Notes under the pieces: generated by a model | Told to the model about the DNA's origin: nothing | The model's input: the letters and a program-made list of their open reading frames with translations, nothing else | Databases searched by the model: none | Position numbers and translations under genes: made by a program | Virus genome (UHGV): UHGV-1369668 | DNA: 39,121 nucleotides | Origin: a virus | Strand: one strand, 5' to 3' | Shown: positions 3,567 to 29,551 of the stretch, piece by piece | Numbering within the stretch: the first letter of the stretch is position 1 | Layout of the letters: each line of letters starts with the position of its first letter

Positions 3567-4486
3567 TAAATCCACCCACTTTCGCTCTTAATCTCTTCCG
3601 CCTTGCCGTTTATCGCAGTACTTTGTAATCTTTCAAACGCGACTTCAAACTCATTCCTGTACTGTGTGGCAATTGAGATATCATCCTCTTTATATAGCTG
3701 TGAAGCCATATAAAGCGGTAATATTGCAGCCACTTCTCTGTCAAGCGATAATTCATAGCTATCCTCTGTTCCACTTGTTATTGTTGGAGGTAGTGCATTG
3801 TAATACACTATGTAATTACCTGGGACTTCTCTATCGAGGGCAAGTACCTTATCACCCTCTTGGTAAACCTCATCCGTCTTAATATATCGTGTATTTTGAA
3901 TATCGCCTTCAAAGTAGATTGAATTAATCGAATGAAAATCATCAACAATATCCGGCATACGAAATCTGACTTTTTCACAATAATCCGGAACTAAGCCTGG
4001 CTCTGTAAATTTAGACCTGTATAACGCAATATTCTTTACTGAATATGGATATTCCGAATCGAATACTATAGTTACAGGAAGCTGTTTTTCATTGTTTATC
4101 AATCCCTTAAACGGCGTATACTTATTTATGCTATCGATATCAACAATTTCTACATAATCTCCTGCTGAAATTGTGGCAGTGCACTTTCCCGTAGCTTCAA
4201 AGTAATATGACCTAGCACGTTCTCCGCTAAATATCATTTCACCGCTTTCTTTCAGATGGATTTTTCCGCCAGTCTCTTTGCCTAAGATATTTGGTATAGG
4301 GTTAATTGAAATAGACACGCTCTTAACCAAAAACTTACCTGCCGTCGAAAGCATTAAAATACCTTCGTTTGCTACCTGTGGCATTGCAGCCAAGTAGTCC
4401 CTTGTACTGTCGTCTGTCGGGATAGTGCTTCCATTTGCACTAAACATTTTCTGTATGGTTGCTAATTTCAATTCTTCCCATGTCAT
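3566..4486 (-). CDS. Virion structural protein (306 aa; head-tail adaptor/tail candidate)
   Basis: Tightly coupled in the late operon downstream of the capsid gene and a 96-aa gene. Function assigned by synteny only. Confidence 0.4.
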   Translation of the reverse strand: MTWEELKLATIQKMFSANGSTIPTDDSTRDYLAAMPQVANEGILMLSTAGKFLVKSVSISINPIPNILGKETGGKIHLKESGEMIFSGERARSYYFEATGKCTATISAGDYVEIVDIDSINKYTPFKGLINNEKQLPVTIVFDSEYPYSVKNIALYRSKFTEPGLVPDYCEKVRFRMPDIVDDFHSINSIYFEGDIQNTRYIKTDEVYQEGDKVLALDREVPGNYIVYYNALPPTITSGTEDSYELSLDREVAAILPLYMASQLYKEDDISIATQYRNEFEVAFERLQSTAINGKAEEIKSESGWI

Positions 4487-4489
4487 AAT

Positions 4490-4780
4490 TTATAACTCCA
4501 ATTTTTCGATAATAGCCTTCTTAATAGCAGAACCGCTTGTCGCTTCAATTCCATATTCACTAGCCAACTTCTTTAATTCAGTAATTGTCATTCTATTAAT
4601 CTGTGTCTTAGTGTATTTCTTGATTTCTGCTTTTTCTTCCAAAAGCTCATCTTTTTCCACAAGCTTCTTGCATTCAACTCTCTTAGAAATATAATTACCG
4701 TCTTTTAATACGCGGATAATCTCATAAGTTGAACCGCAATCTCCAAATGTGTCACCTATTTTTAGATTCTTTGGTATCAT
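4490..4780 (-). CDS. Small protein with a C-terminal Rho-N/SAP-like domain (96 aa)
   Basis: The C-terminal TITELKKLASEYGIEATSGSAIKKAIIEKL resembles the Rho N-terminal/SAP helix-hairpin often found in small phage head-associated proteins. It lies directly after the capsid gene. Confidence 0.45.
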   Translation of the reverse strand: MIPKNLKIGDTFGDCGSTYEIIRVLKDGNYISKRVECKKLVEKDELLEEKAEIKKYTKTQINRMTITELKKLASEYGIEATSGSAIKKAIIEKLEL

Positions 4781-4795
4781 ATTATTCTCCTAAAA

Positions 4796-4830
4796 ATAAA
4801 AAGGGGCAGATCGCTCCACCCCTTTTTGCT
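4796..4830 (-). terminator. Rho-independent terminator after the capsid gene
   Basis: Minus strand reads GGGGTGGAGCGATCTGCCCC followed by TTTTTATTTTT, between the capsid stop (4837) and the next start (4780). Confidence 0.4.
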
Positions 4831-4836
4831 ATTCAC

Positions 4837-5838
4837 TTATGACAGTGTTGTACCTAAGTCAGCACCGCCAAGGATGACATGTCTCCAGTCAAAGAATCCG
4901 GCAGACATTCTTGCTCTACCAGACCAGTTAAGATTGAAGCTCTTCTCCTCTACCCAGTCCTTCATAGTAAGTGGGATTCTGTCAAAGAATACTGAACCTG
5001 AAAGCTCCTTATTAGCTTCACTCGACATGATAATATAAGGTGCCTTTCCCTCTGCAACCACCCATCTGTGATTTACTACCAGATTCCAGAGTCCCTTCTG
5101 AGTATTTACATCATTGTAATTTGAACCAACTGTAAGGTCTGACTTAATAATCTTTCTTACAGTATCCTCAAGCTCGGGGCAATTGCCGGGAATAACAATT
5201 GTATCAAATGTGTATCCCATAACATTGCCAGAGGCATTCTTAAAATTGCGACCGATATTAGCCAGTCTGTTAAGCATCTTAGAATCTGTTCCAAATCCAT
5301 TTGTAAATACATTGGACTGCTCAGCAACGCCCGACTTCTTTCCAAGATGATCTGTTGCGAAAAGTGCCTTTGCATCACCTGTGGTCTTATCAAGCGACTT
5401 ACCACCGAACATGAATGTTGAGCCCTCAGCTGTAAGTGCATCTGAAGCATACTGTGCGCGTGTTCTCTTGTAAGCTCTAACAAAGTTAGCTGCTGCTGTC
5501 TTCATTGTATCGATATCGCCGTCTTCATTCATTTCTGCTGTGCATACAAATGTCTTAATGAACTGCTTATGCTCAATAAGCTTTGAGAAGCCCTGCTGAA
5601 GCTCATCCTGAACACCGTTATCGCCTTCATCGACAATATCAAAATTAGCCATTTCTGTAAGACCGGTCATCTTCTCACCGAACTTATCTGACTTCTTAAT
5701 GTTAAACAGCGACTTAACCAGCTCATCATCATTATTCTTCTCGTTATCTGTATCCATGAGTACAGCTCTAACGACCTGGTCTGTTACCTTCCATAAATCA
5801 TCATTTAATCCACTCTTCTTTGAAAATACAATAGCCAT
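4837..5838 (-). CDS. Major capsid protein candidate (333 aa)
   Basis: Lies immediately downstream of an acidic coiled-coil (scaffold-like) gene and the portal gene. Followed by a terminator. No motif-level proof. Confidence 0.5.
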   Translation of the reverse strand: MAIVFSKKSGLNDDLWKVTDQVVRAVLMDTDNEKNNDDELVKSLFNIKKSDKFGEKMTGLTEMANFDIVDEGDNGVQDELQQGFSKLIEHKQFIKTFVCTAEMNEDGDIDTMKTAAANFVRAYKRTRAQYASDALTAEGSTFMFGGKSLDKTTGDAKALFATDHLGKKSGVAEQSNVFTNGFGTDSKMLNRLANIGRNFKNASGNVMGYTFDTIVIPGNCPELEDTVRKIIKSDLTVGSNYNDVNTQKGLWNLVVNHRWVVAEGKAPYIIMSSEANKELSGSVFFDRIPLTMKDWVEEKSFNLNWSGRARMSAGFFDWRHVILGGADLGTTLS

Positions 5839-5853
5839 GTTTTAATCTCCTTA

Positions 5854-6696
5854 TCATAAAATCTTGTTATACTTGGCCTTCAATTCCTTCATTGAACAAT
5901 CAGGGAAAGCCCTCTTCCACTGTGGCAACTCTTCACTAGGAATATCAACACCGCCATCATCACTATTGGAAATACCATTAGTCTGGTTTAGATGCTGTGT
6001 ATTCTTCATGCTATTTATAGTTGCCTGTTTTGCGCCTGCTGTCATTTGAGACACAAGCGCATCGTAATTGAACATCTTATAAGCATCAGCAAGACTCACA
6101 TTGTGGTCATTTACATACTGAATCATAGCGGCTGCATTATCCTTGTTAAGGATGTCATCAATGCTTTTAACCGAACTGTCAAGCTTCTGAATCTCTTTGA
6201 CATCATTCTCAAGACGATTCTGAATTTCAAGTTGTTTTGTTGCTTCAATAATCTGCTGTGCTTGTAAAATGGCAGGATTATTATTAATCTGCTTTTCGAT
6301 ATAGGAATTAAGCTCATCAGCGGTTACACTTCCGCTCTGCAAGCTCTGTTCCATTTGAAGCTTTTCCTGTGCATCTAAAGCATCAAAATAATCCTTCTGT
6401 GAACGTATAGGTTGTCCTGTAATCGGATTGATGTAGCCTGCAAATCTCCGCTCAAATGCTAAATCCGATTCTCTCTGCCTTTTAGCAAACTCCTGCTCCG
6501 CCCTACGTCTTGCGGCGGCATACTTGGCATTTTCTTCAGCACTCTGAATTTCTGCCTCACTGCCTTCTGCTAACTGCTGTCCTTCTGCTTCGATTGTTTC
6601 TGAACTATCTGTATTAATGTCAGTAGTAACAACTTCCGCTCCGGTTTCCTGAGTCTCAGCGACCGACTCATTGTTTACGCTTAAATCTGCACCCAT
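5854..6696 (-). CDS. Scaffolding protein candidate (acidic, coiled-coil rich)
   Basis: Glu/Gln/Ala-rich helical sequence (EAEGQQLAEGSEAEIQSAEENAKYAAARRRAEQEFAKRQRE...) between portal and capsid. Best start is ATG at 6696 with GGAAAGGAG upstream; the track ORF extends to 6753. Confidence 0.45.
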   Translation of the reverse strand: MGADLSVNNESVAETQETGAEVVTTDINTDSSETIEAEGQQLAEGSEAEIQSAEENAKYAAARRRAEQEFAKRQRESDLAFERRFAGYINPITGQPIRSQKDYFDALDAQEKLQMEQSLQSGSVTADELNSYIEKQINNNPAILQAQQIIEATKQLEIQNRLENDVKEIQKLDSSVKSIDDILNKDNAAAMIQYVNDHNVSLADAYKMFNYDALVSQMTAGAKQATINSMKNTQHLNQTNGISNSDDGGVDIPSEELPQWKRAFPDCSMKELKAKYNKIL

Positions 6697-6833: not shown

Positions 6834-7022
6834 TCATTCTGACACAACGTTATCTATTGGATTTCTAACAGTACTTACTGTCTTGTTGTAATTACTGCAT
6901 TTCTTGCTCCTACAAGTAAGCTCCTGCTCAAGTACTAACTTGGGGTTGCCTTCATTATCCAACGAGACCTTGTAAGTCGAATTGGATATTGCCATTTCCA
7001 CCCTGCATAGCGGACACATCAT
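6834..7022 (-). CDS. Small zinc-ribbon protein (62 aa) overlapping the portal 3' end
   Basis: MMCPLCRVEMAI...CRSKKCSNY shows a CPxC...CxxxxC pattern. A strong RBS, GGAAGGAG, lies 6 nt upstream of ATG 7022. It overlaps the portal (stop at 6955) by about 68 nt in another frame. Confidence 0.45.
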   Translation of the reverse strand: MMCPLCRVEMAISNSTYKVSLDNEGNPKLVLEQELTCRSKKCSNYNKTVSTVRNPIDNVVSE

Positions 7023-8892
7023 TTTGCGCTCCTTCCTGCTCAGATATTCTAGCTTCAATACTGTCTTTTATTATTCCTGCATTGGGATATCCGTTTTTTT
7101 CCATAAGCTTCCAGTATAACAACGATGTCTGCAAATCTCCTACCGGTCCGAAAGCACCACTCTGTAACTTAAGGTCTATCTGTTGCCACATAGCCTCTCG
7201 ATTTGTCATTATTGTCGATGTAGGATTGGTTGTGAAAATAAATTCATCATTCCAATAATACTCTCCCGCGCTATCTCTCTTTAGGAACATGTATCTATCA
7301 AACGCCGAATATTCTTTGCTTCCATCTGTGTTTTCACTACTAATCGGCATAGGCTGGTCTGCATAAGCAAGTGCAAACTTAAACATCATTTCATAAAGCT
7401 TTGCGTATGCTGCATTTTTCATCACACGTTTACTTTCAAGCCTTCCTGCTGCCTGGTTAATCGAATACTGCTTAGCACTGCCCGAACGAGCCGACGCGTC
7501 ATATTTGCCCTGGAACGCATTTGTAATTCCGAGTGTTGACTGCGCAAAGCTGTAATTCTGAGAAAGCATTGATAAATCTTGAGATATATCAGCTTGTGTG
7601 GTTCTTACTCCAACCAAATTTGCGTTACTTTGGTCTACTCTAATAATCTTATATTCCTTGTCCGATGTCTCAACATCGGTATTCTTTGGAAGCTGAAGAT
7701 AAGAGCCACCCATAAGTATTTTTTCCTGTATTTTTGAACCTATTTTTGAGATTGCGTCCTGTTGGTCTCTTATGACATCAATGTCAGACGAGCCAAGGAA
7801 TTTATTGTAACGTGATACATTTTTGCGTTCTACAATAGGGAAAATATTAGGCTTATAATATGGCAATTTAACGTTTCTCGTCTTTGTTGTCATTATCGGC
7901 TTTCCGACCTCATTAAACATCGGTGCTCCGTTAGCATCGGTGAGTGGTACTTCTTCGTCGAATGTGGGTTCAAACGTTTCAGTAAACGTAACAACCTTTT
8001 CGTTAATGGTCTCGTAATCTTGCACTTCTTCGACAAACTTTTTACTTCCGCATTCGCATTTTTCACCCGTTTTCGGTTTTCCACACTTTTCACATACCTC
8101 TATTCTTCTCTTCTGATAGTCTTCCATATCTTCGAGAATATAATCGTCGCACCAAATAAATACACCTATGCCACCATTTTTATTGCGGTAGTATGCCTGT
8201 GTGACTGTGCCGATATCATCGCATTGCATTGCGTTTTCGGTTGTGAAGTTATGGTCTACATCAGCAAGTTCAACATCAACGCCGTACTTTCTCTTTATAA
8301 AGTCTTTCGTCATATTGTACTGGATAAAGAAGTAGTCCATTTTATCAAAGTCAACTACACCAGGCTGTGGAATAATCTGTCTTGGATGTCTCTCTGAGAT
8401 AACTATATCGCCATATGTTGTGTGTAGTCCCTTTGAACTATCCCATTCAACATGAAAGAAATCTGCTCCTTGTACATACGTTGTTCTTTCATTTTGGTCA
8501 TTAAGTATTTCCGCACCGAGTGTCTGAATCTCATTAGTTAAAAATGCTTCAATTACTTTGGCTGCTTCCTCGTCCTCTTTATGAATGGGTATTACTCTGG
8601 GACTTGGTATCGAACTATCAACCTGCGATTCAATAAGCTCATAGCAAATATTTCTCACATTAATTGCAAGCTTCTTTACGCCCGAATTACTGTTAGGATT
8701 TTTTTCAACCTTACGGCTTCCTTCATACAGCTCATCTCTACGGCTTATAAGCTCGAGCTCTGACTCATACGCAATCCTTGCCTTTTCAAATCTGTTTTTC
8801 CATCGGCTAAGTTTCTTCGCCTCTTCGGGATTGACTACTGTGTCAACTGCCTTCTTAATCATCTTTTTCAACCTCATTCGGGCTCTCCCCAT
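6955..8892 (-). CDS. Portal protein (645 aa) with an internal Cys4 zinc-ribbon insertion
   Basis: Immediately downstream of terL with a 19-nt overlap; size is typical of a portal. Contains CEKCGKPKTGEKCECGSKKF, encoded at about 8040-8100. Confidence 0.6.
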   Translation of the reverse strand: MGRARMRLKKMIKKAVDTVVNPEEAKKLSRWKNRFEKARIAYESELELISRRDELYEGSRKVEKNPNSNSGVKKLAINVRNICYELIESQVDSSIPSPRVIPIHKEDEEAAKVIEAFLTNEIQTLGAEILNDQNERTTYVQGADFFHVEWDSSKGLHTTYGDIVISERHPRQIIPQPGVVDFDKMDYFFIQYNMTKDFIKRKYGVDVELADVDHNFTTENAMQCDDIGTVTQAYYRNKNGGIGVFIWCDDYILEDMEDYQKRRIEVCEKCGKPKTGEKCECGSKKFVEEVQDYETINEKVVTFTETFEPTFDEEVPLTDANGAPMFNEVGKPIMTTKTRNVKLPYYKPNIFPIVERKNVSRYNKFLGSSDIDVIRDQQDAISKIGSKIQEKILMGGSYLQLPKNTDVETSDKEYKIIRVDQSNANLVGVRTTQADISQDLSMLSQNYSFAQSTLGITNAFQGKYDASARSGSAKQYSINQAAGRLESKRVMKNAAYAKLYEMMFKFALAYADQPMPISSENTDGSKEYSAFDRYMFLKRDSAGEYYWNDEFIFTTNPTSTIMTNREAMWQQIDLKLQSGAFGPVGDLQTSLLYWKLMEKNGYPNAGIIKDSIEARISEQEGAQNDVSAMQGGNGNIQFDLQGLVG

Positions 8893-10433
8893 TTCTCAAT
8901 TAACCTAAGTTTATCCGCTTCGTTTGCATTTTTATAATCTTCATACATATCGCTAGTCCATTTTTTACGCCTACCATCTTTTATAATGTCCGGCGGTAAT
9001 GTCCAATAAACCGCAAAGTACCTAAACGAGTCAACACTGTGTGTCAGCTCATGCGGTTGCTTTGCATATTGATTAGGCTTGTTTTTATCTTGGAGTATTT
9101 TCTTCATACAGCGATAAAGGTTATTGCAAGTGCCTTTCAATATCGTAAAACGCGCTTGCTCACCCTCTGGTGCATAAAGCCATTCCTTCATTCGCATACA
9201 GCCATTAAACATGCTATTGTCAACTTTTGTCAGTGGTATACCATGCTCTTCAAATATAATGGCAGTGCTTTTTCCTGTAGTTGCTTGTCTGTTCCACAAA
9301 TCAGGCGGTGCTAAGTATGCAGTGATTTTTTCATCACCAACCAAATCCCTAAGAGTGTCGGCTGCTTGCATTGCATTTAAGTTAGGCTCATGAATTTCTC
9401 TGTATGCCTGTGCATGATAGTTTGCGTCAACCGCATAAAATATAGCTGCAAACATATCGAATCCATAATCAATAGATACATATCTGTTTACAGCTCCCTT
9501 TATAGGTATTTCGCTTATGTGCTGTTTCGAATTTATCTCCGGCAAGAATAATCCGCCCGCAACACTTAATGCCTCATCAATGCTTGCAGGATATTCTTGT
9601 TTTGTTTCTTCTACTCCTATCATCGCAACGGTTTCGTCATACCATTCCTTACTTCTTCGCGGATCGGCGAACCAAGGAATAAAAATCTTATTAAAGCCGT
9701 TGTCATTGTTGGTAAACATGTCTTCAAACAGTGAACCATGATTGTTTGTAGATAGACCTATGAATTTACCGCCTGTCGGTCTGTTTATTGTAGGTGCAGC
9801 CGATACCCAAATATCATCAGCCCATTGCTGATATGCCCACTCATCAAAAATAGCCAGGTCTGCCGTGAAAGAACGACACGCACCAGGCGATGACGGAAAA
9901 GCCTTAAATACACTGTCCTGACTTCCCGGGAAGTGAACTATTAGTTGTAACGATTGTCTCTCAAATGTGGGACCTGGCCACCCCTTGGCAGAATCGCTTT
10001 TATATTCGCGTATGAGGAATGTCATATTCTCATATTCAACACTTAATCTTCTTACTAACTCCTTCGCTTCGTCTTCTGTTCTTGATAATGCTATTGCCGT
10101 TCTACCGCTTCGCATGAGACATACCCATGAAGCATACGATATAACTAACCACGAAAACCCAAGCTGTCTTGCTTTTAGTATTATGTTTCGCCTATGCTCG
10201 TGAATCGACCTGAGTGCTTCCTTTTGCGCGTCCCACATAATAAAGGGTTGTATAAGTTCTTCTGCGTCCTTATCTTCAAATACGCAATAGTTCTCAACGT
10301 AGTATTCTATATCGTCTCTGCACTTCTCGATTTGCATATCGCGAGTAAGGGCTAAAATCTGTCCGTATGTGAGCGATTCAACTGCTTCCTCACTATCGAC
10401 CCCTCTGCTTTTTAAGTATTCTCCTATGTCCAT
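8874..10433 (-). CDS. terL: Terminase large subunit
   Basis: 519 aa with an ATPase-type DE in LAIFDEW and a C-terminal nuclease-like segment (IDYGFDMF...HSVDSFRY). The gene order terS-like / terL / portal fits. Confidence 0.8.
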   Translation of the reverse strand: MDIGEYLKSRGVDSEEAVESLTYGQILALTRDMQIEKCRDDIEYYVENYCVFEDKDAEELIQPFIMWDAQKEALRSIHEHRRNIILKARQLGFSWLVISYASWVCLMRSGRTAIALSRTEDEAKELVRRLSVEYENMTFLIREYKSDSAKGWPGPTFERQSLQLIVHFPGSQDSVFKAFPSSPGACRSFTADLAIFDEWAYQQWADDIWVSAAPTINRPTGGKFIGLSTNNHGSLFEDMFTNNDNGFNKIFIPWFADPRRSKEWYDETVAMIGVEETKQEYPASIDEALSVAGGLFLPEINSKQHISEIPIKGAVNRYVSIDYGFDMFAAIFYAVDANYHAQAYREIHEPNLNAMQAADTLRDLVGDEKITAYLAPPDLWNRQATTGKSTAIIFEEHGIPLTKVDNSMFNGCMRMKEWLYAPEGEQARFTILKGTCNNLYRCMKKILQDKNKPNQYAKQPHELTHSVDSFRYFAVYWTLPPDIIKDGRRKKWTSDMYEDYKNANEADKLRLIEKWGEPE

Positions 10434-10781: not shown

Positions 10782-11453
10782 CTAACCGTTTTTCTTTCCT
10801 GTCGCTATAAGCCTCTTAAGCTGTGTTCGCATTACATCGAGTTTCTCCCGGTCCTTATCGGTCAGGCACATATCTTCAATCACCCTATCCTGGGGAGTAT
10901 CACCGTATGTATCTCTAACCAATATTGCTGCCTTTATGTCTCCCGCTAAAGCTACCTGGACCATTCTGCACCAGAGTATGTTATAAACACTGTAATCTCC
11001 GTCAGTTAAGACGATACCATCACCGAGTATCTCCTCGGCAGTCTTTGCTGATAGGTCTGAATTAAGTATATTTTTAAGGCATTCCTTCGCTTCCTTGCGT
11101 CTTTTGGTGTTCCTTTTTCGAACCTCGGCAGCCCTTCGCCCGTATTCAGCCCTAGTCTCCTCAGACCACTCTTTTATATTAACCCCTTTATTATATATAT
11201 TTTTATATCTTTCTCTGTACTCAGCAGGTACTTTATCAGGTGGGCAGTTTTTAGGTAGCTGACCGGTAATATCCGGTTGATTATCTGATGCATTATACAG
11301 TTCTTCATCTGATTCAGACTCACCAAGTAATAGCTCTTTTATGTCCTCGATCTGTTCATCTGGTTCTGTATTTATTTCTAAATCTTCTAGTTGCTCAATC
11401 GGTATCTCTTCAGGAGCTGTCTTAATAGCCTCATCAATTATCTCTCTTTTCAT
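10782..11453 (-). CDS. Putative terminase small subunit / DNA-packaging protein
   Basis: 223 aa from the MKREIIDE start (RBS AAAGGTGA), with an acidic N-terminus and a basic KRNTKRRKEAK patch. It is the first gene of the late operon, directly upstream of terL. No family motif recognised. Confidence 0.4.
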   Translation of the reverse strand: MKREIIDEAIKTAPEEIPIEQLEDLEINTEPDEQIEDIKELLLGESESDEELYNASDNQPDITGQLPKNCPPDKVPAEYRERYKNIYNKGVNIKEWSEETRAEYGRRAAEVRKRNTKRRKEAKECLKNILNSDLSAKTAEEILGDGIVLTDGDYSVYNILWCRMVQVALAGDIKAAILVRDTYGDTPQDRVIEDMCLTDKDREKLDVMRTQLKRLIATGKKNG

Positions 11454-11778
11454 GCTTGTCACCTTTCTACCCTTTTGTTTTTCTTCACCAGTACCATACA
11501 AAAAAGGCAACCACCTTATTTGGTGGCTACCTTCTTGTTAGGGGTACAATGGTGTTTTTAGCAATTAACCAATTTTATTAATAACATACTAAAAAAAAAA
11601 TATATATGGCTATTTGGGGAAGATTGCCCATTTTTTGCCCGTTTTTGCACGATTTGTTGAAACTGCACAAAAACTCATTTTGACTTTTGTGAACTTTTGC
11701 CACTTGCACTACTGGTATCCCAGTGTTAAGATAAAGGCACAACGAAGCACAAAACAACAAGTTGAAAGGAGCACGAAA

Positions 11779-12687
11779 ATGAAGAAAGATGTTTACGAAA
11801 TAGTTACAGAAAGATTTTTGGAGAAGCTTGAACAGGGCATTATCCCTTGGAAAAAACCTTGGAAAATGGTCGGCGGTGCTTTTCCGGCTTATCCTCTTGG
11901 AAGTAAAAAGCCATACGGATTTATTAACCAGATGTTACTCGATTTTGAGTATGGAGAGTTTGCTACTTTTGAAACTATCAAGAGAAACGGCGGCAAGGTT
12001 AAGAAGGGTGAAAAGTCAAGACTTATCGTTGGATGGATTCACACCACCGAAAAGATAAAGGATGAGAACGGCGAAACGGTCGTTGACGATGATGGCAATG
12101 AACAATATAAAGACAGATTCGCATTGAGATATTATCAGGTATTTAACGTATACACACAGGTTGAAGGGCTTAAGGACAACATCGATATAGAGGACGAGAC
12201 AAGCGCACTAATCGAGTCGGATTTTGTTCCTGGAGATGCTTATCAAATGGCAAATGATATTATCGTCAATTATACAGATAGAGAGCAAATCTCGTTCAAC
12301 AATGGCGATATATCAAACAGGGCTTATTATCTTCCTTCTGCTGATTCAATAACAGTCCCGAATATGTCCCAGTTCGAAGATGTTAACAAGTATTATAGTA
12401 CCGTTTTTCACGAGATGGTTCACTCAACAGGACATCAATCGAGGTTAGATAGAGAACTCGAAAAGAAGGCAGCTCACGGATCTAAGGAATATAGCCGAGA
12501 GGAGTTAGTCGCCGAAATCGGATCCGCCGCATTAATGAACATCTGCGGAATAGAGAACGAAGACACTTTCGAAAATTCGGCTGCTTATATTCAAAGTTGG
12601 TCGAAAGCTCTTAAGGACTCGCCCAAAATGATAGTATATGCTAGTGCTCAGGCACAAAAGGCAGTCGAGTATATTATCGAAAAATAG
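11779..12687 (+). CDS. ardC: ArdC-like antirestriction protein (ssDNA-binding N-domain plus HExxH metalloprotease domain)
   Basis: The N-terminal IPWKKPW...YYQVFNV motif region is typical of the ArdC-N/DUF1738 fold. A C-terminal HEMVHSTGH zincin motif is present. The RBS GAAAGGAG precedes ATG 11779; the track's N-terminal extension from 11614 lacks an RBS and is rejected. Confidence 0.7.
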   Translation: MKKDVYEIVTERFLEKLEQGIIPWKKPWKMVGGAFPAYPLGSKKPYGFINQMLLDFEYGEFATFETIKRNGGKVKKGEKSRLIVGWIHTTEKIKDENGETVVDDDGNEQYKDRFALRYYQVFNVYTQVEGLKDNIDIEDETSALIESDFVPGDAYQMANDIIVNYTDREQISFNNGDISNRAYYLPSADSITVPNMSQFEDVNKYYSTVFHEMVHSTGHQSRLDRELEKKAAHGSKEYSREELVAEIGSAALMNICGIENEDTFENSAAYIQSWSKALKDSPKMIVYASAQAQKAVEYIIEK

Positions 12688-12774
12688 TGACATCATCCCT
12701 TCCGGTAGGCGGTAAGACCGGCGAAACTTGAAGCAGGGAGAACCGAAAATAAACACAAGGAAAGGTAAAAAGAT

Positions 12775-12963
12775 ATGAAAGCACAGAACATGACAATCGA
12801 CATCAATAAATTAAATACTTATGAACTTGAACAGTTAAGAGCAATGTTTTTCAACCTGAACATGATGGACGAAGTAGGACAGATTAATGACAGAATCGCA
12901 TTTATAAATGGATGGATGAATGAAAAACAAGAAAAAGAATATGTTAATAAATATTGTGCATAA
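12775..12963 (+). CDS. Hypothetical protein (62 aa)
   Basis: Co-directional with ardC and preceded by AAAGGTAAAAAG before the ATG. No recognisable motif. Confidence 0.35.
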   Translation: MKAQNMTIDINKLNTYELEQLRAMFFNLNMMDEVGQINDRIAFINGWMNEKQEKEYVNKYCA

Positions 12964-13018
12964 GTAAAAACAATAAACCGAGCCACAGCGGTTACTGTGG
13001 CAGAAAGAGAGGTGTAAT

Positions 13019-13279
13019 ATGAAAAGTATAATATGGCACTATTCACTTACTTCTATCTATACAGAGTGTCCGTATTGCCATTCACAAAATAGTGAAAATG
13101 AACGTACAGGAGAATGTAAAAATTGTCACAATATAATGGATTTTGCTAATGAAGTTGTTAGGAAATCAAAAGACGTTTTAGAGTGTGAAAAGTTGGGTTT
13201 ACAAGGTGCTGTATATAAGAATGATAAGGGACAATGGGAGCAATGGGTAGACCCATACAGTGCAAAAATTTGCATTTAA
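13019..13279 (+). CDS. Zinc-ribbon protein (86 aa)
   Basis: CPYCHSQN...ECKNCHN gives a CPxCH...CxxCH pattern. RBS is GAGAGGTG. Confidence 0.4.
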   Translation: MKSIIWHYSLTSIYTECPYCHSQNSENERTGECKNCHNIMDFANEVVRKSKDVLECEKLGLQGAVYKNDKGQWEQWVDPYSAKICI

Positions 13280-13340
13280 TAACAATAACAGCAAAGCAAT
13301 AAAGATTCGGAAATAACAAGTATTATTTCAGGAGGGAACA

Positions 13341-13514
13341 ATGGTTAATAAAAAAGCGAAAAATGCGTATGATACAAAATATGTTGCAGAGCACTATGAT
13401 ATAATAACTTTTAAGCTCCCCAAGGGCTCAAAGGATAAACTTAAGGCATCGGCAGAAGCCCAGGGAGTCACTCTGACAGACCTACTAAGGAAATCAGTAA
13501 ATAAATATCTATAA
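13341..13514 (+). CDS. Ribbon-helix-helix (Arc/CopG-like) DNA-binding protein (57 aa)
   Basis: MVNKKAKNAYDTKYVAEHYDIITFKLPKGSKDKLKASAEAQGVTLTDLLRKSVNKYL, with RBS GGAGGG. It is below the 60-aa cut-off of the ORF track. Confidence 0.45.
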   Translation: MVNKKAKNAYDTKYVAEHYDIITFKLPKGSKDKLKASAEAQGVTLTDLLRKSVNKYL

Positions 13515-13517
13515 ATA

Positions 13518-13552
13518 AAAAGCATCCACCTTACCTAGTGGGTGCTTTTATT
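13518..13552. terminator. Bidirectional rho-independent terminator between convergent genes
   Basis: Stem GCATCCAC/GTGGGTGC of 8 bp with an 8-nt loop, followed by TTTTATT. It lies between the RHH stop (13514) and the late-regulator stop (13555). Confidence 0.55.
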
Positions 13553-13554
13553 AA

Positions 13555-13965
13555 TTACAGTTTTATTTTTTTTATAGTCCTTTGAATAATCCTGTGAATA
13601 CTTTGGTCTTCCTTCCCATAAAGCACCGCGATTTTATGCACCCCAACACCTTCAATAAACCTCAGGGACATAATTTCGCGTTTTCGACTGTCCTTGATTC
13701 CTTCGATAGCTTCCGTCACGAGATATTTATTAGCTTCGCTCAGTTTCTTAAGTCTATCGATTTCTTGACGGATTTCCGCGCACATTATGGCACACTTCTC
13801 AACCCGTGAGCTTATGTCATTATTCGATATAGTCACGGGCGATATTTTTTGAGTGATGCTCGTTGCTATAGTCTCCCAACCTTCAAGCTCAAGCTCTAAC
13901 CGCCATATCTCGTGATTTATTGACTTGTATTCATTTAGAATTTTTCTTTTTTGCTCATAATTCAT
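13555..13965 (-). CDS. ArpU/RinA-like late-gene transcriptional activator (sigma region-4-like HTH)
   Basis: 136 aa. The C-terminal REIMSLRFIEGVGVHKIAVLYGKEDQSIHRIIQRTIKKI matches the sigma-70 r4 / ArpU pattern. Its position upstream of the packaging genes is typical for Firmicutes phages. Confidence 0.55.
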   Translation of the reverse strand: MNYEQKRKILNEYKSINHEIWRLELELEGWETIATSITQKISPVTISNNDISSRVEKCAIMCAEIRQEIDRLKKLSEANKYLVTEAIEGIKDSRKREIMSLRFIEGVGVHKIAVLYGKEDQSIHRIIQRTIKKIKL

Positions 13966-14376: not shown

Positions 14377-14580
14377 CTACAACACAAATATCTTATCTCT
14401 TTCATATTCTTCTTCAGAATAATGTTCACACTTATTCGCTCTGCTTCTATGAACATCCTGTCCAACTTGAATATGATGCATTGTGCCATCTCGCATTTCA
14501 TCATAGGAATAATGGCAAGTACACATAAATCCTCTTATAAAGTCGCAATTAACACAATTCTTGCAATCTCTACCAGTCAT
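14377..14580 (-). CDS. Cys/His-rich small protein, paralog 1 (CKNCVNC...CTCH)
   Basis: 67 aa, about 88% identical in DNA to 15967-16176. The CxxCxxC plus CxCH metal-binding pattern is present. Confidence 0.45.
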   Translation of the reverse strand: MTGRDCKNCVNCDFIRGFMCTCHYSYDEMRDGTMHHIQVGQDVHRSRANKCEHYSEEEYERDKIFVL

Positions 14581-15966: not shown

Positions 15967-16176
15967 CTAAAACACAAATATTTTGTCTCTCTCATATTCT
16001 TCTTCAGAATAATGTTTACACTTATTTGCTCTGCTTCTATGAACATCTTGCCCTACTTGTATATGGTACATTTTGCCATCTTGCATTTCGTCATATGAAT
16101 AATGACAAGTACACATAAAACCTCTTGTGAAGTCGCAATTAACACAATTCTTACAATCTCTACCTTTGTTGCTCAT
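15967..16176 (-). CDS. Cys/His-rich small protein, paralog 2
   Basis: 69 aa, near-identical to 14377-14580. RBS is AAGGAGTGA. Confidence 0.45.
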   Translation of the reverse strand: MSNKGRDCKNCVNCDFTRGFMCTCHYSYDEMQDGKMYHIQVGQDVHRSRANKCKHYSEEEYERDKIFVF

Positions 16177-26252: not shown

Positions 26253-27197
26253 TTAGTAGACTCCTGTGTCAAGTTCTTGTTCAATTTGCTCCCCCCTTTC
26301 GATAATGTATGATGCATAATAACTCTCGACATTATTACGCAAATTACTATCAGCACAACTGTCGCCGTGATATTTATCAAGTGCCCAGTAAATTCCATTT
26401 CCCTCGTCAATAAGTGACTTCAAATAACTGGTGGCTACATCAACATTACTAAGTAGGTCATAAGGATTTTCAATGTCGTGATAAGTTGTATTAAGCTGAC
26501 AAGCTCCAAAACAAGTATTGCTACTATTAACAGCTTCTCGATCATATCCACTTTCAACCTCAATAAGTGCCATAACCAAACCAAATTCAAGCCCCTTACT
26601 TTCGCATATATTCTTGATTTTTATCTGCTCGTCAGGGCTAATAGCAATCTCTTCAATAACATAAGCATCGTAATATCCAGGTGTGAAATCATTGTTATAT
26701 TCAATTCCAAACACCTCGTTATATATTTCTTCCTTGCTCTGTTCGTATTTTGGATATTCCCTTTTCACATAGTCGGTATCTTCTTTTGCTCTTGCATTTG
26801 TCCCCCACAAAATCAGAGCAGACGCTAAAAGTAACGTGACCTTATACCAACGCCCTAAAATATCGCGTCGCATTACCGTCTTCTTCTTTGGCTTCTTCTT
26901 GGCATATCTTGGATCCGCTGTAGAGACATTTCTTTTATCAGCCTTACTCTTTAACATTTCCGGCCTTACATACCAATCTTCCGGCTTAAGCTCAAGATAG
27001 TTTGCTAGTTTAGCAGCGATATACTTTGACTTGCTGTGCCTGTGATCTCCGAAAAAGTTGTACAGAGATTTTTTTGAGACACCAATGTCCTCGGCTACTT
27101 TTACAAAGGTAAGTCCGCGTTTTTCTATGCGTTTACGGCAGACTCTTTCAAATCGTCTAAACTCTTTTTCGTTTAGTTGAAGTTCGATTAATTGCAT
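26253..27197 (-). CDS. Membrane-anchored HTH (XRE-like) regulator fused to a lytic transglycosylase (SLT) domain
   Basis: N-terminal HTH LTFVKVAEDIGVSKKSLYNF, then a basic stretch and TM segment WYKVTLLLASALILWG. The C-terminus has the SLT signature LIEVESGYDREAVNSSNTCFGACQLN...YLKSL. Confidence 0.55.
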   Translation of the reverse strand: MQLIELQLNEKEFRRFERVCRKRIEKRGLTFVKVAEDIGVSKKSLYNFFGDHRHSKSKYIAAKLANYLELKPEDWYVRPEMLKSKADKRNVSTADPRYAKKKPKKKTVMRRDILGRWYKVTLLLASALILWGTNARAKEDTDYVKREYPKYEQSKEEIYNEVFGIEYNNDFTPGYYDAYVIEEIAISPDEQIKIKNICESKGLEFGLVMALIEVESGYDREAVNSSNTCFGACQLNTTYHDIENPYDLLSNVDVATSYLKSLIDEGNGIYWALDKYHGDSCADSNLRNNVESYYASYIIERGEQIEQELDTGVY

Positions 27198-27443: not shown

Positions 27444-27635
27444 TCATGGCAAAAAAATAACATCATCCATTGAAACATCGATGCACTCGCATACCTTTAC
27501 GGCATTAACTAGCTTAATGCTTGATGGCTTTTCTTCCCATCCACGGTATGTATTGGGGTGAACATCGCAATAATCTGCTATTTTTTCAACAGGGATATTC
27601 TTTAATCGTCTCCACTCTGGCAGTGTTAATTTCAC
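27444..27635 (-). CDS. Cro-like HTH repressor (63 aa, GTG start)
   Basis: Divergent from the CI-like gene. RBS AAGGAGG lies 7 nt upstream of GTG. HTH KIADYCDVHPNTYRGWEE. Confidence 0.55.
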   Translation of the reverse strand: MKLTLPEWRRLKNIPVEKIADYCDVHPNTYRGWEEKPSSIKLVNAVKVCECIDVSMDDVIFLP

Positions 27636-27727
27636 TTTTCATCCTCCTTTCCTATTTTTATATGTAGTTGTTGAACATTAGTTCCATACCATAGATTGAT
27701 ATTTTCCTGTGCCCATTGATACTATAT

Positions 27728-27762
27728 CACAACATTTTGTTGTTTACAACATTTTTTTGTGA
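27728..27762. promoter_or_regulatory. Operator sites of the genetic switch (ACAAC-N5-GTTGT inverted repeats)
   Basis: cACAACATTTTGTTGTttACAACATTTTTTTGTG overlaps the -35 of the repressor promoter. A third copy, TAACATTTTGTTGTG, lies at about 27426-27440. Confidence 0.5.
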
Positions 27763-27786
27763 AAAATTACAAAATTATGGTATAAT
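27757..27786 (+). promoter_or_regulatory. Sigma-70-type promoter for the CI-like repressor gene
   Basis: TTGTGA, then 18 nt, then TGgTATAAT, upstream of the GGAGG RBS and ATG 27808. Confidence 0.5.
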
Positions 27787-27807
27787 CTCATCATGGAGGA
27801 CAAAGCA

Positions 27808-28260
27808 ATGGAAAATTTTGGCAAAAACTTAAAGCGAATTAGAACTAATAAACTATTATCACAAGAGGCATTAGCTTCTACTATGCAAATGACACAAGCA
27901 AATATTTCGTCCTGGGAAACAGGCAGAACAGAACCTTCTATTAGTGATATATACAAATTGAGTCAAATATTGGAATGTACCATTAGTGAATTGACAGGCA
28001 CAGAACAGCTTGGACGAAGCAATACACTCTCTGATGATTCAAATACTTTAGAAAGTCCATACGACCGTATTTTACAATTGTCAGATAAACTAACAAGTCA
28101 AGAACTAATAAGATTACAGAAGTTATTTAAGATTAAAGCTGAATATAAGCAAAATCTCGAACAATTGGAACAGCAAAAGCAACTATATGAAGAAGAGTAC
28201 AAAAAGCACACAAGCGATTTCTTGAACGGATATAGGCCTAAAAAGGATGGATTTATATGA
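27808..28260 (+). CDS. CI-like XRE-family repressor (about 150 aa)
   Basis: HTH LSQEALASTMQMTQANISSWETGRTEPSISDIYKLSQIL. Divergent from Cro and adjacent to the integrase. Confidence 0.65.
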   Translation: MENFGKNLKRIRTNKLLSQEALASTMQMTQANISSWETGRTEPSISDIYKLSQILECTISELTGTEQLGRSNTLSDDSNTLESPYDRILQLSDKLTSQELIRLQKLFKIKAEYKQNLEQLEQQKQLYEEEYKKHTSDFLNGYRPKKDGFI

Positions 28261-29246
28261 AAATAGAAAAAGTAGGGAATCAGTTCCGAGTACGAAAAAT
28301 GATTAATTGTATAAGGTACACCATGACTTTTGATCATGAGCCAAAGCAAAGTGAGATAAAACGCGAATTGTCGCGCTTAATGCGTGAGCAGCCAAAAGAC
28401 GATACGCCAAAGGGTACTTTTGAATATTATGCTAAAAAGTATATGCAAATACAGGATAATATATTGTCACCATCAACACTTCGATCGTATGGATTTATAT
28501 TAGATAAGTTAAGCAGTGAATTTAAGCGAAAACAACTTAAAGATATTACTCAGGCTGATGTACAGGCAGAAATAAATATAATTGCTAAAAACAAAAGTCC
28601 TAAGACAGTTCGTAACAATCACGCATTCATATCAGCTGTTATTAAAATGTATCGCCCTAATTTAATACTGCATACCAAATTGCCTCAGAAAATCAAGAAA
28701 CAAAAAACAGTTCCATTAAGGGATGATATAAAGGCAGTTTTAGATGAGGTTAGAGATACAAGATATTATATTCCTTATCGCCTTGCCATATATGGCCTAA
28801 GAAGGGGCGAAATTTGCGCGATAACGGCCCTTGATATATCTGATGCCAATATTCTTACCATAAACAAAGATAAGGTCTATAATGGCGAAAAAAAGTGGGT
28901 AATTAAGCCATATCCCAAAACCACCGATTCTCAAAGGGCCATATACATTGATAATGAGCTTGCTGATTTAATAAGAAAACAAGGTTATGCTTTTAACGGG
29001 CACCCTTCCAGACTGTACGATAATCTTAAACATGTACAGGATAGACTTGGCATCGAGCGGTTTAGATTCCACGATTTCAGGGCGTATATGGTAACAGAGC
29101 TTTCACAAGCCGGATATTCAGAAGCGGATATTATGAAAATGGGCGGATGGTCTACACCTAATATTATGAAATCCGCGTATCGTCAATCTCGTATCCAAAA
29201 GGAACTCGAAACACAGAAAAACATATCCTCTACACTGACGTTATAA
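28257..29246 (+). CDS. int: Tyrosine site-specific integrase
   Basis: 329 aa. The C-terminal catalytic region has R...HDFRAY...GGWSTPNIMKSAYRQ (the R-H-R-Y family pattern). Followed by attP. Confidence 0.85.
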   Translation: MKIEKVGNQFRVRKMINCIRYTMTFDHEPKQSEIKRELSRLMREQPKDDTPKGTFEYYAKKYMQIQDNILSPSTLRSYGFILDKLSSEFKRKQLKDITQADVQAEINIIAKNKSPKTVRNNHAFISAVIKMYRPNLILHTKLPQKIKKQKTVPLRDDIKAVLDEVRDTRYYIPYRLAIYGLRRGEICAITALDISDANILTINKDKVYNGEKKWVIKPYPKTTDSQRAIYIDNELADLIRKQGYAFNGHPSRLYDNLKHVQDRLGIERFRFHDFRAYMVTELSQAGYSEADIMKMGGWSTPNIMKSAYRQSRIQKELETQKNISSTLTL

Positions 29247-29372
29247 GACAAACGTTTTTTGACAAATTTTTTGACAAATTTTTTGACAAACGTTTTGACA
29301 AAAAATCTTGTAAAGCCCCATTTTACAAGGGTATGAGGATTTTTACGAGAAAACGTTTTGACAAATAAAAAA

Positions 29373-29410
29373 AGCCCCGAAAACCGCGTAAAACCGCGTA
29401 TTTTGGGGCT
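29373..29410. terminator. Bidirectional hairpin terminator containing a 2x10-bp direct repeat
   Basis: AAAGCCCCGAAAACCGCGTAAAACCGCGTATTTTGGGGCTTTT. On the minus strand it directly follows the tRNA fragment and the end of the 1764-aa gene. On the plus strand it follows int. Confidence 0.55.
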
Positions 29411-29420
29411 TTTCTGGTAG

Positions 29421-29455
29421 TGCCGGCAGTGGGACTTGAACCCACTACGGACACC
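29421..29455 (-). other. 3' fragment of a tRNA gene (T-arm plus acceptor 3' strand); the probable integration core
   Basis: Minus strand reads GTGGG-TTCAAGT-CCCAC-TGCCGGC-A. The 5' acceptor strand GCCGGCA is absent and the anticodon stem is not intact upstream, so it is not a complete tRNA. Confidence 0.55.
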
Positions 29456-29551
29456 CTATAAAGTCAATAATTTCAAGGCTTTTCAGATTTTTGACAAATT
29501 TTTTGACAAATTTTTTTTTTTGAAAAGCACTTCTAAGACTCTGTTTTTACA

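Follow-up and report, generated by a model that had tools for sequence, protein, structure and literature searches.

Organization of the cassette

The virus genome UHGV-1369668 (39,121 nucleotides analysed over its whole length, hereafter the window) is that of a temperate tailed phage of ~39 kb and low GC content (~38%), in which nearly all transcription runs on the minus strand. Between the gene of a putative late regulator and the packaging genes lie four plus-strand genes, which encode a homologue of ArdC, two small proteins (orf62 and orf86) and a 57-residue putative ribbon-helix-helix (RHH) protein, RHH57 (Table 1). An initial annotation, made from the letters alone, had described here an opposite-strand accessory island flanked by minus-strand genes, and the four open reading frames (ORFs) are found exactly where it had placed them. 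They form a single plus-strand unit closed by a bidirectional intrinsic terminator, whose folding energies (-16.8 kcal/mol on the plus strand, z -5.1; -13.9 kcal/mol on the minus strand, z -3.2) are in agreement with the strong two-way terminator that had been proposed. The orientation of the cassette is also visible in the base composition, since GC and AT skew reverse sign only at ~11500-13500 and in the lysogeny module (~27500-29500).

Table 1. Coordinates of the cassette, its control elements and neighbouring features in the window
Feature	Position	Strand	Remarks
Putative sigma-A-type promoter	11704-11732	plus	-35 TTGCAC 11704-11709; 17-nt spacer; TGn-extended -10 TAAGAT 11727-11732
Candidate operator	11711-11724		inverted repeat ACTGG-TATC-CCAGT, 14 bp, within the promoter spacer
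Ribosome-binding site GAAAGGAG	11764-11771	plus	7 nt 5' of the ArdC ATG
ArdC homologue	11779-12687	plus	302 aa
orf62	12775-12963	plus	62 aa; variable cargo
Hairpin in the orf62/orf86 gap	12982-13001	minus	8-bp, GC-rich; T-run on the minus strand only; dG -13.6 (minus), z -3.5
orf86	13019-13279	plus	86 aa; variable cargo
RHH57	13341-13514	plus	57 aa
Bidirectional intrinsic terminator	13518-13549	both	stem; closes the cassette and the convergent late-regulator gene
Putative late regulator	13555-13965	minus	136 aa, sigma-70 region-4-like; outside the cassette
Intrinsic terminator before terS	11492-11545	minus	dG -25.7, z -5.1, then UUUUUUG; ~45 nt 5' of the terS start
Putative terS (small terminase)	10782-11453	minus	ATG taken at 11453; immediately upstream of TerL; outside the cassette
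TerL	8874-10433	minus	profile matches
Portal gene	6955-8892		identified in the window
Helix-turn-helix repressor	27793-28260	plus	
Tyrosine integrase	28257-29246	plus	

A full-length ArdC homologue with an intact active site

Judged from its sequence, the first gene encodes a full-length member of the ArdC family in which the metal and catalytic site is intact. Indeed, the N-terminal domain matches ArdcN (PF08401) with 76.7 bits for a cut-off of 22.6, residues 3-122 covering profile positions 1-123 of 123, and the C-terminal part matches MPTase-PolyVal (PF18818) with 119.5 bits for a cut-off of 27.5 (residues 171-291). The pairing of an ArdC-N domain with a zincin, suggested by the initial annotation together with the profile searches that would establish it, is thus borne out, all the more as residues 2-300 are collinear with residues 6-285 of the solved ArdC of plasmid R388 (PDB 6I89/6SNA; E 1.4e-32). 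The gluzincin residues H211-E212-M-V-H215, E241-E242 (within EELVAEIG) and Y270 have as equivalents H201/E202/H205, E228/E229 and Y255 in the R388 protein, where their roles as ligands have been described (PMC7213743). The protein also matches the 'anti-restriction protein' family PHROG 7245 (E 1.5e-69); NCBIfam contains no model for ArdC. Regarding the start of the gene, the ATG at 11779 is probably the true one, since a ribosome-binding site precedes it and the alignment with R388 ArdC begins at residue 2, so that the database call for a 95%-identical homologue (P0001, 357 aa from an upstream TTG at 11614) is probably too long.

The best plasmid matches of this protein come from plasmids of Bacillales (43-46% identity), among 3120 plasmid records that include 1740 conjugative ones, whereas its identity to any phage copy deposited to date is at most 37.5%. 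Its neighbours are terS, TerL, the portal gene and a phage late regulator, and not the conjugative element in which ArdC is usually met. ArdC of R388 works in the recipient cell against the type I system HsdRMS (PMC7213743), and an anti-restriction function is likewise predicted for the phage protein from homology and context. A role in replication was considered, some phage records labelling homologues as primases, and rejected, the replication genes being located elsewhere and the gene missing from most relatives.

RHH57 belongs to a family that marks the locus

Residues ~20-57 of RHH57 match at least five RHH-type families, all marginally. These include PHROG 13890 (4e-7), an Arc-like (3.6e-4) and a CopG-like (8.9e-4) PHROG, the Pfam families RHH_1 (0.035; 14.5 bits for a cut-off of 20.5) and NikA-like (0.025), both under cut-off, and, in NCBIfam, RelB (3.7e-4, well below cut-off) and ORF56 (3.6e-3). 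By eye, an alternating strand (IITFKL) is followed by a G-V-T turn between two predicted helices.

A word-indexed search for homologues returned copies at 89-96% identity only, and the distant ones were reached by building a profile (hidden Markov model, HMM) from five RHH proteins of the same genomic site in related phages and running it on the ORFs of the loci that had been fetched (designated L followed by a number). With this HMM, 31 ORFs were matched, all of them near terS and within or adjoining cargo genes; homologues of RHH57 thus occur at the same site in L048, L050, L009, L057, L010 and ~25 more loci. Because the same family is present in ~30 relatives irrespective of the cargo, RHH57 is more plausibly the regulator of the cassette, a candidate autorepressor, than one of its anti-defence effectors.

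Promoter and candidate operator

Upstream of the ArdC gene, a putative sigma-A-type promoter is followed by the ribosome-binding site. The initial annotation had reported the sequence TTGCAC-17-TAAGAT at about 11710-11745; the sequence is present, its coordinates are those of Table 1, it agrees with the consensus at 7 of 12 positions, and it was not listed by a promoter scan, which found fewer sites in the window than in shuffled sequence. Both boxes are kept in a 95%-identical relative (L053), and the assignment draws its support from other relatives, because they have better promoters at the equivalent position: TTGTAC-17-TATAGT in L050, TTGACT-17-TATTAT in L048 and TTTACA-17-TATATT in L009.

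Within the spacer of the window promoter lies an inverted repeat, ACTGG-TATC-CCAGT, that we consider as a candidate operator. It occurs once in the window, and 41 of 100 shuffled sequences also had at least one copy, so that this lone copy is not statistically significant by itself; in L053, both arms are invariant amid nearby substitutions. In L050, the corresponding motif ACTAG-N4-CTAGT is present in five copies, all located at cassette promoters (three at the ArdC promoter and two flanking an internal promoter), a number reached in none of 200 shuffles. L048 carries the palindrome CACTTTGCGCAAGGTG in its promoter spacer, and L009 the palindrome CGCTAGCG, again in the spacer, with a second copy 44 bp upstream. 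Finally, in the high-GC locus L013, a J-domain cargo gene and the RHH gene diverge from an intergenic region (5540-5650) that holds the repeat ACGTCNACGTGT, ACGTC(T/A/G)ACGTGT, four times (three direct copies and one inverted), an operator-like array. The sequence of the motif hence differs with the RHH lineage, and no obvious palindrome was seen at the cassette promoter of L057. Since the window copy is unremarkable alone and L057 shows none, the case for an operator is made by the recurring pattern. Control of the cassette promoter by CI was also considered and rejected, the motif being absent from the cI-cro intergenic region.

Two further observations were made in these intergenic regions. 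The motif TTTGGGGAA(G/T)AT occurs 5' of the ArdC promoter in the window (11614-11626), in L053 and in L050 (~6160-6172), the intergenic regions being otherwise diverged, and could be bound by the late regulator or by some other factor. In L057, the leader that separates the RHH gene from the cassette promoter (4540-4700) contains a short ORF of 31 codons encoding a hydrophobic peptide (MGGDNISAYEILVIVLMMITLIEMIRGNKK), then a terminator-like hairpin.

A variable hotspot with changing cargo

The site is a variable hotspot, and the ArdC cassette counts there as accessory cargo, neither core nor replicative, because relatives whose TerL is 50-64% identical have other opposite-strand cargo, or none, at this site. 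The closest loci, L048, L050 and L051/L052 (ArdC 52-55% identical), share a minus-strand terS and an opposite-strand ArdC, accompanied by four to nine small genes, most of which differ. The contigs of L048 and L050 extend far enough to include the cassette end, and in both a homologue of RHH57 stands at or near this end and is followed by the late regulator. Elsewhere, the hotspot is occupied by a GP88-family protein (L009), an LPD29 + DnaJ protein with a short integrase-like protein (L011, L012), a J-domain protein (L013, L047) or a 4-kb run of orphans (L010), DUF5688 being also among the cargo types. Homologues of the late regulator border the hotspot in L009, L011, L012, L050 and L057. ArdC itself was found in none of 40 TerL-related viral loci, leaving aside L007, near-identical but truncated, which lacks the region. 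The prospect that the island would turn out to be core and replicative among relatives, which the initial annotation had named as its own refutation, is thereby contradicted. As expected of an autoregulated counter-defence operon, a candidate regulator gene lies in or adjoins the operon and the cargo varies among relatives.

Composition gives no sign of recent foreign origin. The GC content of the island (37.85%) is that of the genome (37.76%; 52nd percentile of windows of the same size), and the codon-usage distance of the ArdC gene, 0.219, falls inside the range of the other long genes (0.13-0.34), so that the GC and codon comparison proposed with the initial annotation reveals no compositional island.

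The small cargo proteins orf62 and orf86

The three small proteins of the cassette had been described together as DNA-binding or zinc-ribbon proteins, a description that holds for the RHH-like RHH57 and for orf86, a zinc ribbon, and not for orf62. Indeed, no DNA-binding or zinc-ribbon feature was found in orf62 by profile searches or in the predicted fold. It belongs to a family of ~60-residue proteins (38 representative clusters) and its AlphaFold model consists of three helices (pLDDT 95), for which a fold search against the PDB gave nothing significant (best E 1.7). A locus search with a narrow orf62 alignment returned one locus, and a homologue lies in the equivalent hotspot of L057, beside the RHH gene and without ArdC.

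Regarding orf86, it is a conserved zinc-ribbon protein (CxxC...CxxC) with 17 homologous clusters at 54-95% identity, in which C17, C20, C33, C36, C56 and H7 are invariant. Its fold is predicted with confidence (pLDDT 90) and had no significant match in the PDB or BFVD; NCBIfam gave noise only for orf62 and orf86 alike. Homologues of orf86 occur across unrelated phage settings. In L054, a phi29-like podovirus, the homologue (2502-2768) overlaps the start of the gene for the packaging ATPase Gp16; in L061 (1738-2001) it comes right after a Cro-like gene, and in a third phage (L058-L060) it is located 5' of a holin gene.

Transcription around the cassette

The putative terS gene has no family match of its own in Pfam or NCBIfam profile searches, and its tblastn matches in relatives are also located upstream of TerL. 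The late regulator is supported by matches to PHROG 36 (6e-12), Sigma70_r4 (8e-4) and TIGR02937 (1e-7). An intrinsic terminator precedes terS on the minus strand; therefore, the late promoter must lie upstream of this terminator, and late/packaging transcription must read through it. A similar hairpin with a T-run is found before terS in L048 (~7560-7600), L050 (~6055-6105) and L052 (~2395-2425), and also in the distant L013 (~6015-6045), where it is preceded by TTGACA-17-TAAAAT and a leader of ~100 nt. These features suggest that the late genes are under antitermination control. The hairpin in the orf62/orf86 gap may serve to stop antisense transcription arriving from the late-regulator operon, or else make the cassette mRNA more stable.

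Relation to known systems

With the ArdC of R388/pSa (IncW), the phage protein shares the two-domain architecture, the length, the HExxH motif, the glutamate-helix ligand (EELxAEIG) and the tyrosine. The sequences are only distantly related and the settings differ, since R388 is a conjugative plasmid that enters the cell as single-stranded DNA (ssDNA), whereas the gene described here lies next to terS in a temperate double-stranded DNA (dsDNA) phage.

Closer in its logic is the Bacillus plasmid p576 (pLS20 family, clade II), whose strong ardC promoter is repressed by the RHH protein Reg and whose ardC expression is transient after entry because the DNA arrives without repressor (PMC8708921). 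Both systems combine an ArdC gene with a small RHH gene of repressor type, operators (candidate ones here) at the promoter, other variable establishment genes and, for the phage, a predicted transient expression. In p576, however, reg belongs to a separate bicistronic operon, and operators formed by direct heptamer pairs (TTATCCCnnTTATCCC) flank the promoters; the phage operon, in contrast, itself ends with the RHH gene, and its candidate operator, a 14-bp inverted repeat, lies inside the promoter spacer. The likeness drawn here between RHH57 and Reg576 is one of protein type, and repression by RHH57 is a prediction. The p576 regulation has been likened by its authors to Acr-Aca operons (PMC8708921), and the phage repressors of anti-CRISPR operons are helix-turn-helix proteins (PMC8708921), in contrast to the RHH-like RHH57.

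Operons of the Acr/Aca type are made of small counter-defence genes followed by the gene of a small DNA-binding autorepressor, which binds inverted repeats at the promoter; their cargo varies and their regulator is constant. The phage cassette resembles them in its small candidate counter-defence genes ending in a repressor-type gene, its varying cargo and its constant regulator; no anti-CRISPR homologue was identified in it.

ArdC-like proteins of the same family (PHROG 7245) are annotated as antirestriction proteins in 58 phage records, including the Caulobacter phage phiCbK group, whose hosts and phage types are unrelated to those considered here. In one of the deposited records, MW202801.1 (L064; Caudoviricetes sp., an unrelated environmental podovirus), ArdC and three small genes (4001-5929) lie on the opposite strand, at ~4 kb from the gene of the large terminase. 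No RHH annotation was seen at the cassette end in the deposited phage ArdC records. As phage homologues of ArdC are already annotated and the ArdC and RHH logic has been described for plasmids, the cassette would be a known kind of counter-defence module.

Proposed mechanism and alternatives

Taken together, these data lead us to favour, with slightly better than even confidence, an accessory establishment or anti-restriction operon, located in a recombination-prone hotspot, that is expressed in a burst when the DNA enters and is afterwards silenced by the RHH protein it encodes, function and regulation being both inferred. The genome would enter the cell without RHH protein, allowing the host sigma-A RNA polymerase to fire the cassette promoter. 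ArdC would be made at once and would blunt host restriction, as the R388 protein does against HsdRMS in the recipient; its ssDNA-binding domain, and perhaps the protease as well, would be responsible for this action. The co-expressed orf62 and orf86 would be cargo that may target further host functions. RHH57, translated last, would accumulate and bind ACTGG-N4-CCAGT in the promoter spacer, turning the operon off. The outcome would be a short expression burst and silence in the lysogen.

Several points weigh against this proposal: the promoter is weak, the window holds a lone operator copy, the L057 promoter has no such palindrome, and the RHH assignment of RHH57 depends on sub-threshold matches in Pfam and NCBIfam. 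In the literature searched, no experimental work on a phage ArdC was found. For the R388 protein, no protease target is known, and the variant E229A, altered in a metal ligand and expected to be protease-inactive, keeps the ArdC phenotype (PMC7213743). Moreover, the model of ssDNA protection is not directly transferable, because a dsDNA phage genome does not enter as ssDNA. Finally, the RHH gene of L013-type relatives shares its strand with terS, and the protein may instead control the late/packaging genes. Along this line, the RHH protein would be a core regulator of the late/packaging promoter in the divergent terS-ArdC region, and the ArdC cassette a passenger with constitutive or early expression. 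The near-universal presence of the family at the terS-proximal site whatever the cargo, the ~25 relatives in which the RHH gene lies on the terS strand just 5' of terS, and the distance of tens to ~170 bp between the window operator and the necessary position of the minus-strand late promoter (the terminator lying 45 nt before terS) all speak for it. We nevertheless hold it to be unlikely, as two of the five operator copies of L050 flank an internal cassette promoter distant from terS, L013 has a separate strong promoter after the RHH gene and before terS, and the RHH gene points the same way as the cargo, as the last or near-last gene of the unit, in the window, L048, L050 and L009.

Spartan and IrrE are structurally nearest to the protease domain of R388 ArdC (PMC7213743), no physiological target is known, the catalytic residues are fully conserved in the phage protein, and RecT and a PDDEXK exonuclease, both encoded by the phage, generate ssDNA; ArdC could accordingly be an ssDNA-activated protease with another role, for instance the clearance of DNA-protein crosslinks from phage DNA during replication or recombination (Spartan-like) or the cleavage of a repressor affecting induction (IrrE/ImmA-like). 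Such a role appears unlikely. Indeed, ArdC is missing from most relatives with the same backbone and, being accessory, cannot be a core induction switch; it is closer to plasmid ArdCs than to those of deposited phages, and the hotspot cargo of relatives includes LPD29, a domain whose Pfam name is polyvalent-protein-associated. A moron for lysogenic conversion, which the prophage would express to the advantage of its host (for example superinfection exclusion, or relaxed restriction for gene uptake), would fit a temperate phage and a cassette with its own promoter, an opposite orientation and terminators on both sides, the three minus-strand terminators of the region (13518-13549, 12982-13001 and 11492-11545) insulating it from lytic transcription. 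In this case, a candidate operator in the promoter spacer and a co-transcribed repressor-type gene predict low steady-state expression in the lysogen, and the known biology of ArdC is transient and belongs to the establishment phase, which makes the moron a very doubtful explanation. Lastly, the RelB match of RHH57 brings to mind a type II toxin-antitoxin pair formed by orf86 and a RelB-like RHH antitoxin, and homologues of orf86 do neighbour small DNA-binding proteins in places, standing just 5' of a small helix-turn-helix protein in L055 and L056 and between small genes of this type in L061. The two window genes, however, are separated by 61 bp without overlap, orf86 matches no toxin family in profile and fold searches, no DNA-binding partner accompanies it in L054 and L058-L060, and the two families do not travel together (RHH without orf86 in ~30 loci, orf86 without RHH in 7). 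On this lack of co-occurrence the toxin-antitoxin reading, to which we give almost no credence, was rejected.

Other features of the window

Besides the genes discussed above, the window encodes a DnaC-like loader and, downstream of a 1764-aa ORF, a Cna_B-domain protein. An Rfam scan of the whole window gave zero matches and a tRNA search found none. A nucleotide search of GenBank phages revealed no relative beyond a 198-bp match, and a contig search with ArdC returned one match at 43% identity in a Clostridiales metagenome-assembled genome, beside a resolvase and an integrase. We take the host to be a low-GC Clostridia-like bacterium, with no finer placement.

In the early region, two near-identical small Cys-rich ORFs are located on the minus strand ~1.4 kb apart (14377-14580 and 15967-16176; 67 and 69 aa). 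They share the motifs RDCKNCVNCDF and HYSEEEYERDKIFV, and the pair suggests that a gene for a small zinc-binding protein was recently duplicated in tandem-like fashion. Adjoining the lysogeny switch, a minus-strand gene (26253-27197) encodes a 314-aa protein that combines a weak N-terminal helix-turn-helix match with a C-terminal SLT lytic-transglycosylase domain, both its position and this pairing of domains being unusual.

Significance

As a single finding, the cassette is an expected type of module and no surprise. Its added value lies in an RHH-marked hotspot common to many gut-type phages, in two small cargo families without known folds and in a testable model of autoregulation. ArdC is among the least understood anti-restriction proteins, and the literature searched yielded no test of its role outside conjugation. 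A compact phage operon with ArdC and a probable repressor would be a tractable system to ask whether a dsDNA phage is protected, against which defences, and whether the protease is needed. In addition, the RHH gene and its terS and sigma-like flanks provide a search handle for uncharacterised candidate counter-defence genes in gut phages, the orf62 and orf86 families included.

More tentatively, and at odds that we judge to be well short of even, the junction between terS and the late regulator in gut/Clostridia-type phages might be an RHH-gated cargo slot that fires a burst of swappable counter-defence genes (ArdC, LPD29-DnaJ, GP88, DUF5688) on entry, with orf62 and orf86 as new anti-defence families. 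If this is true, the slot would do for these phages what the establishment regulon or the leading-region anti-defence island does for plasmids.

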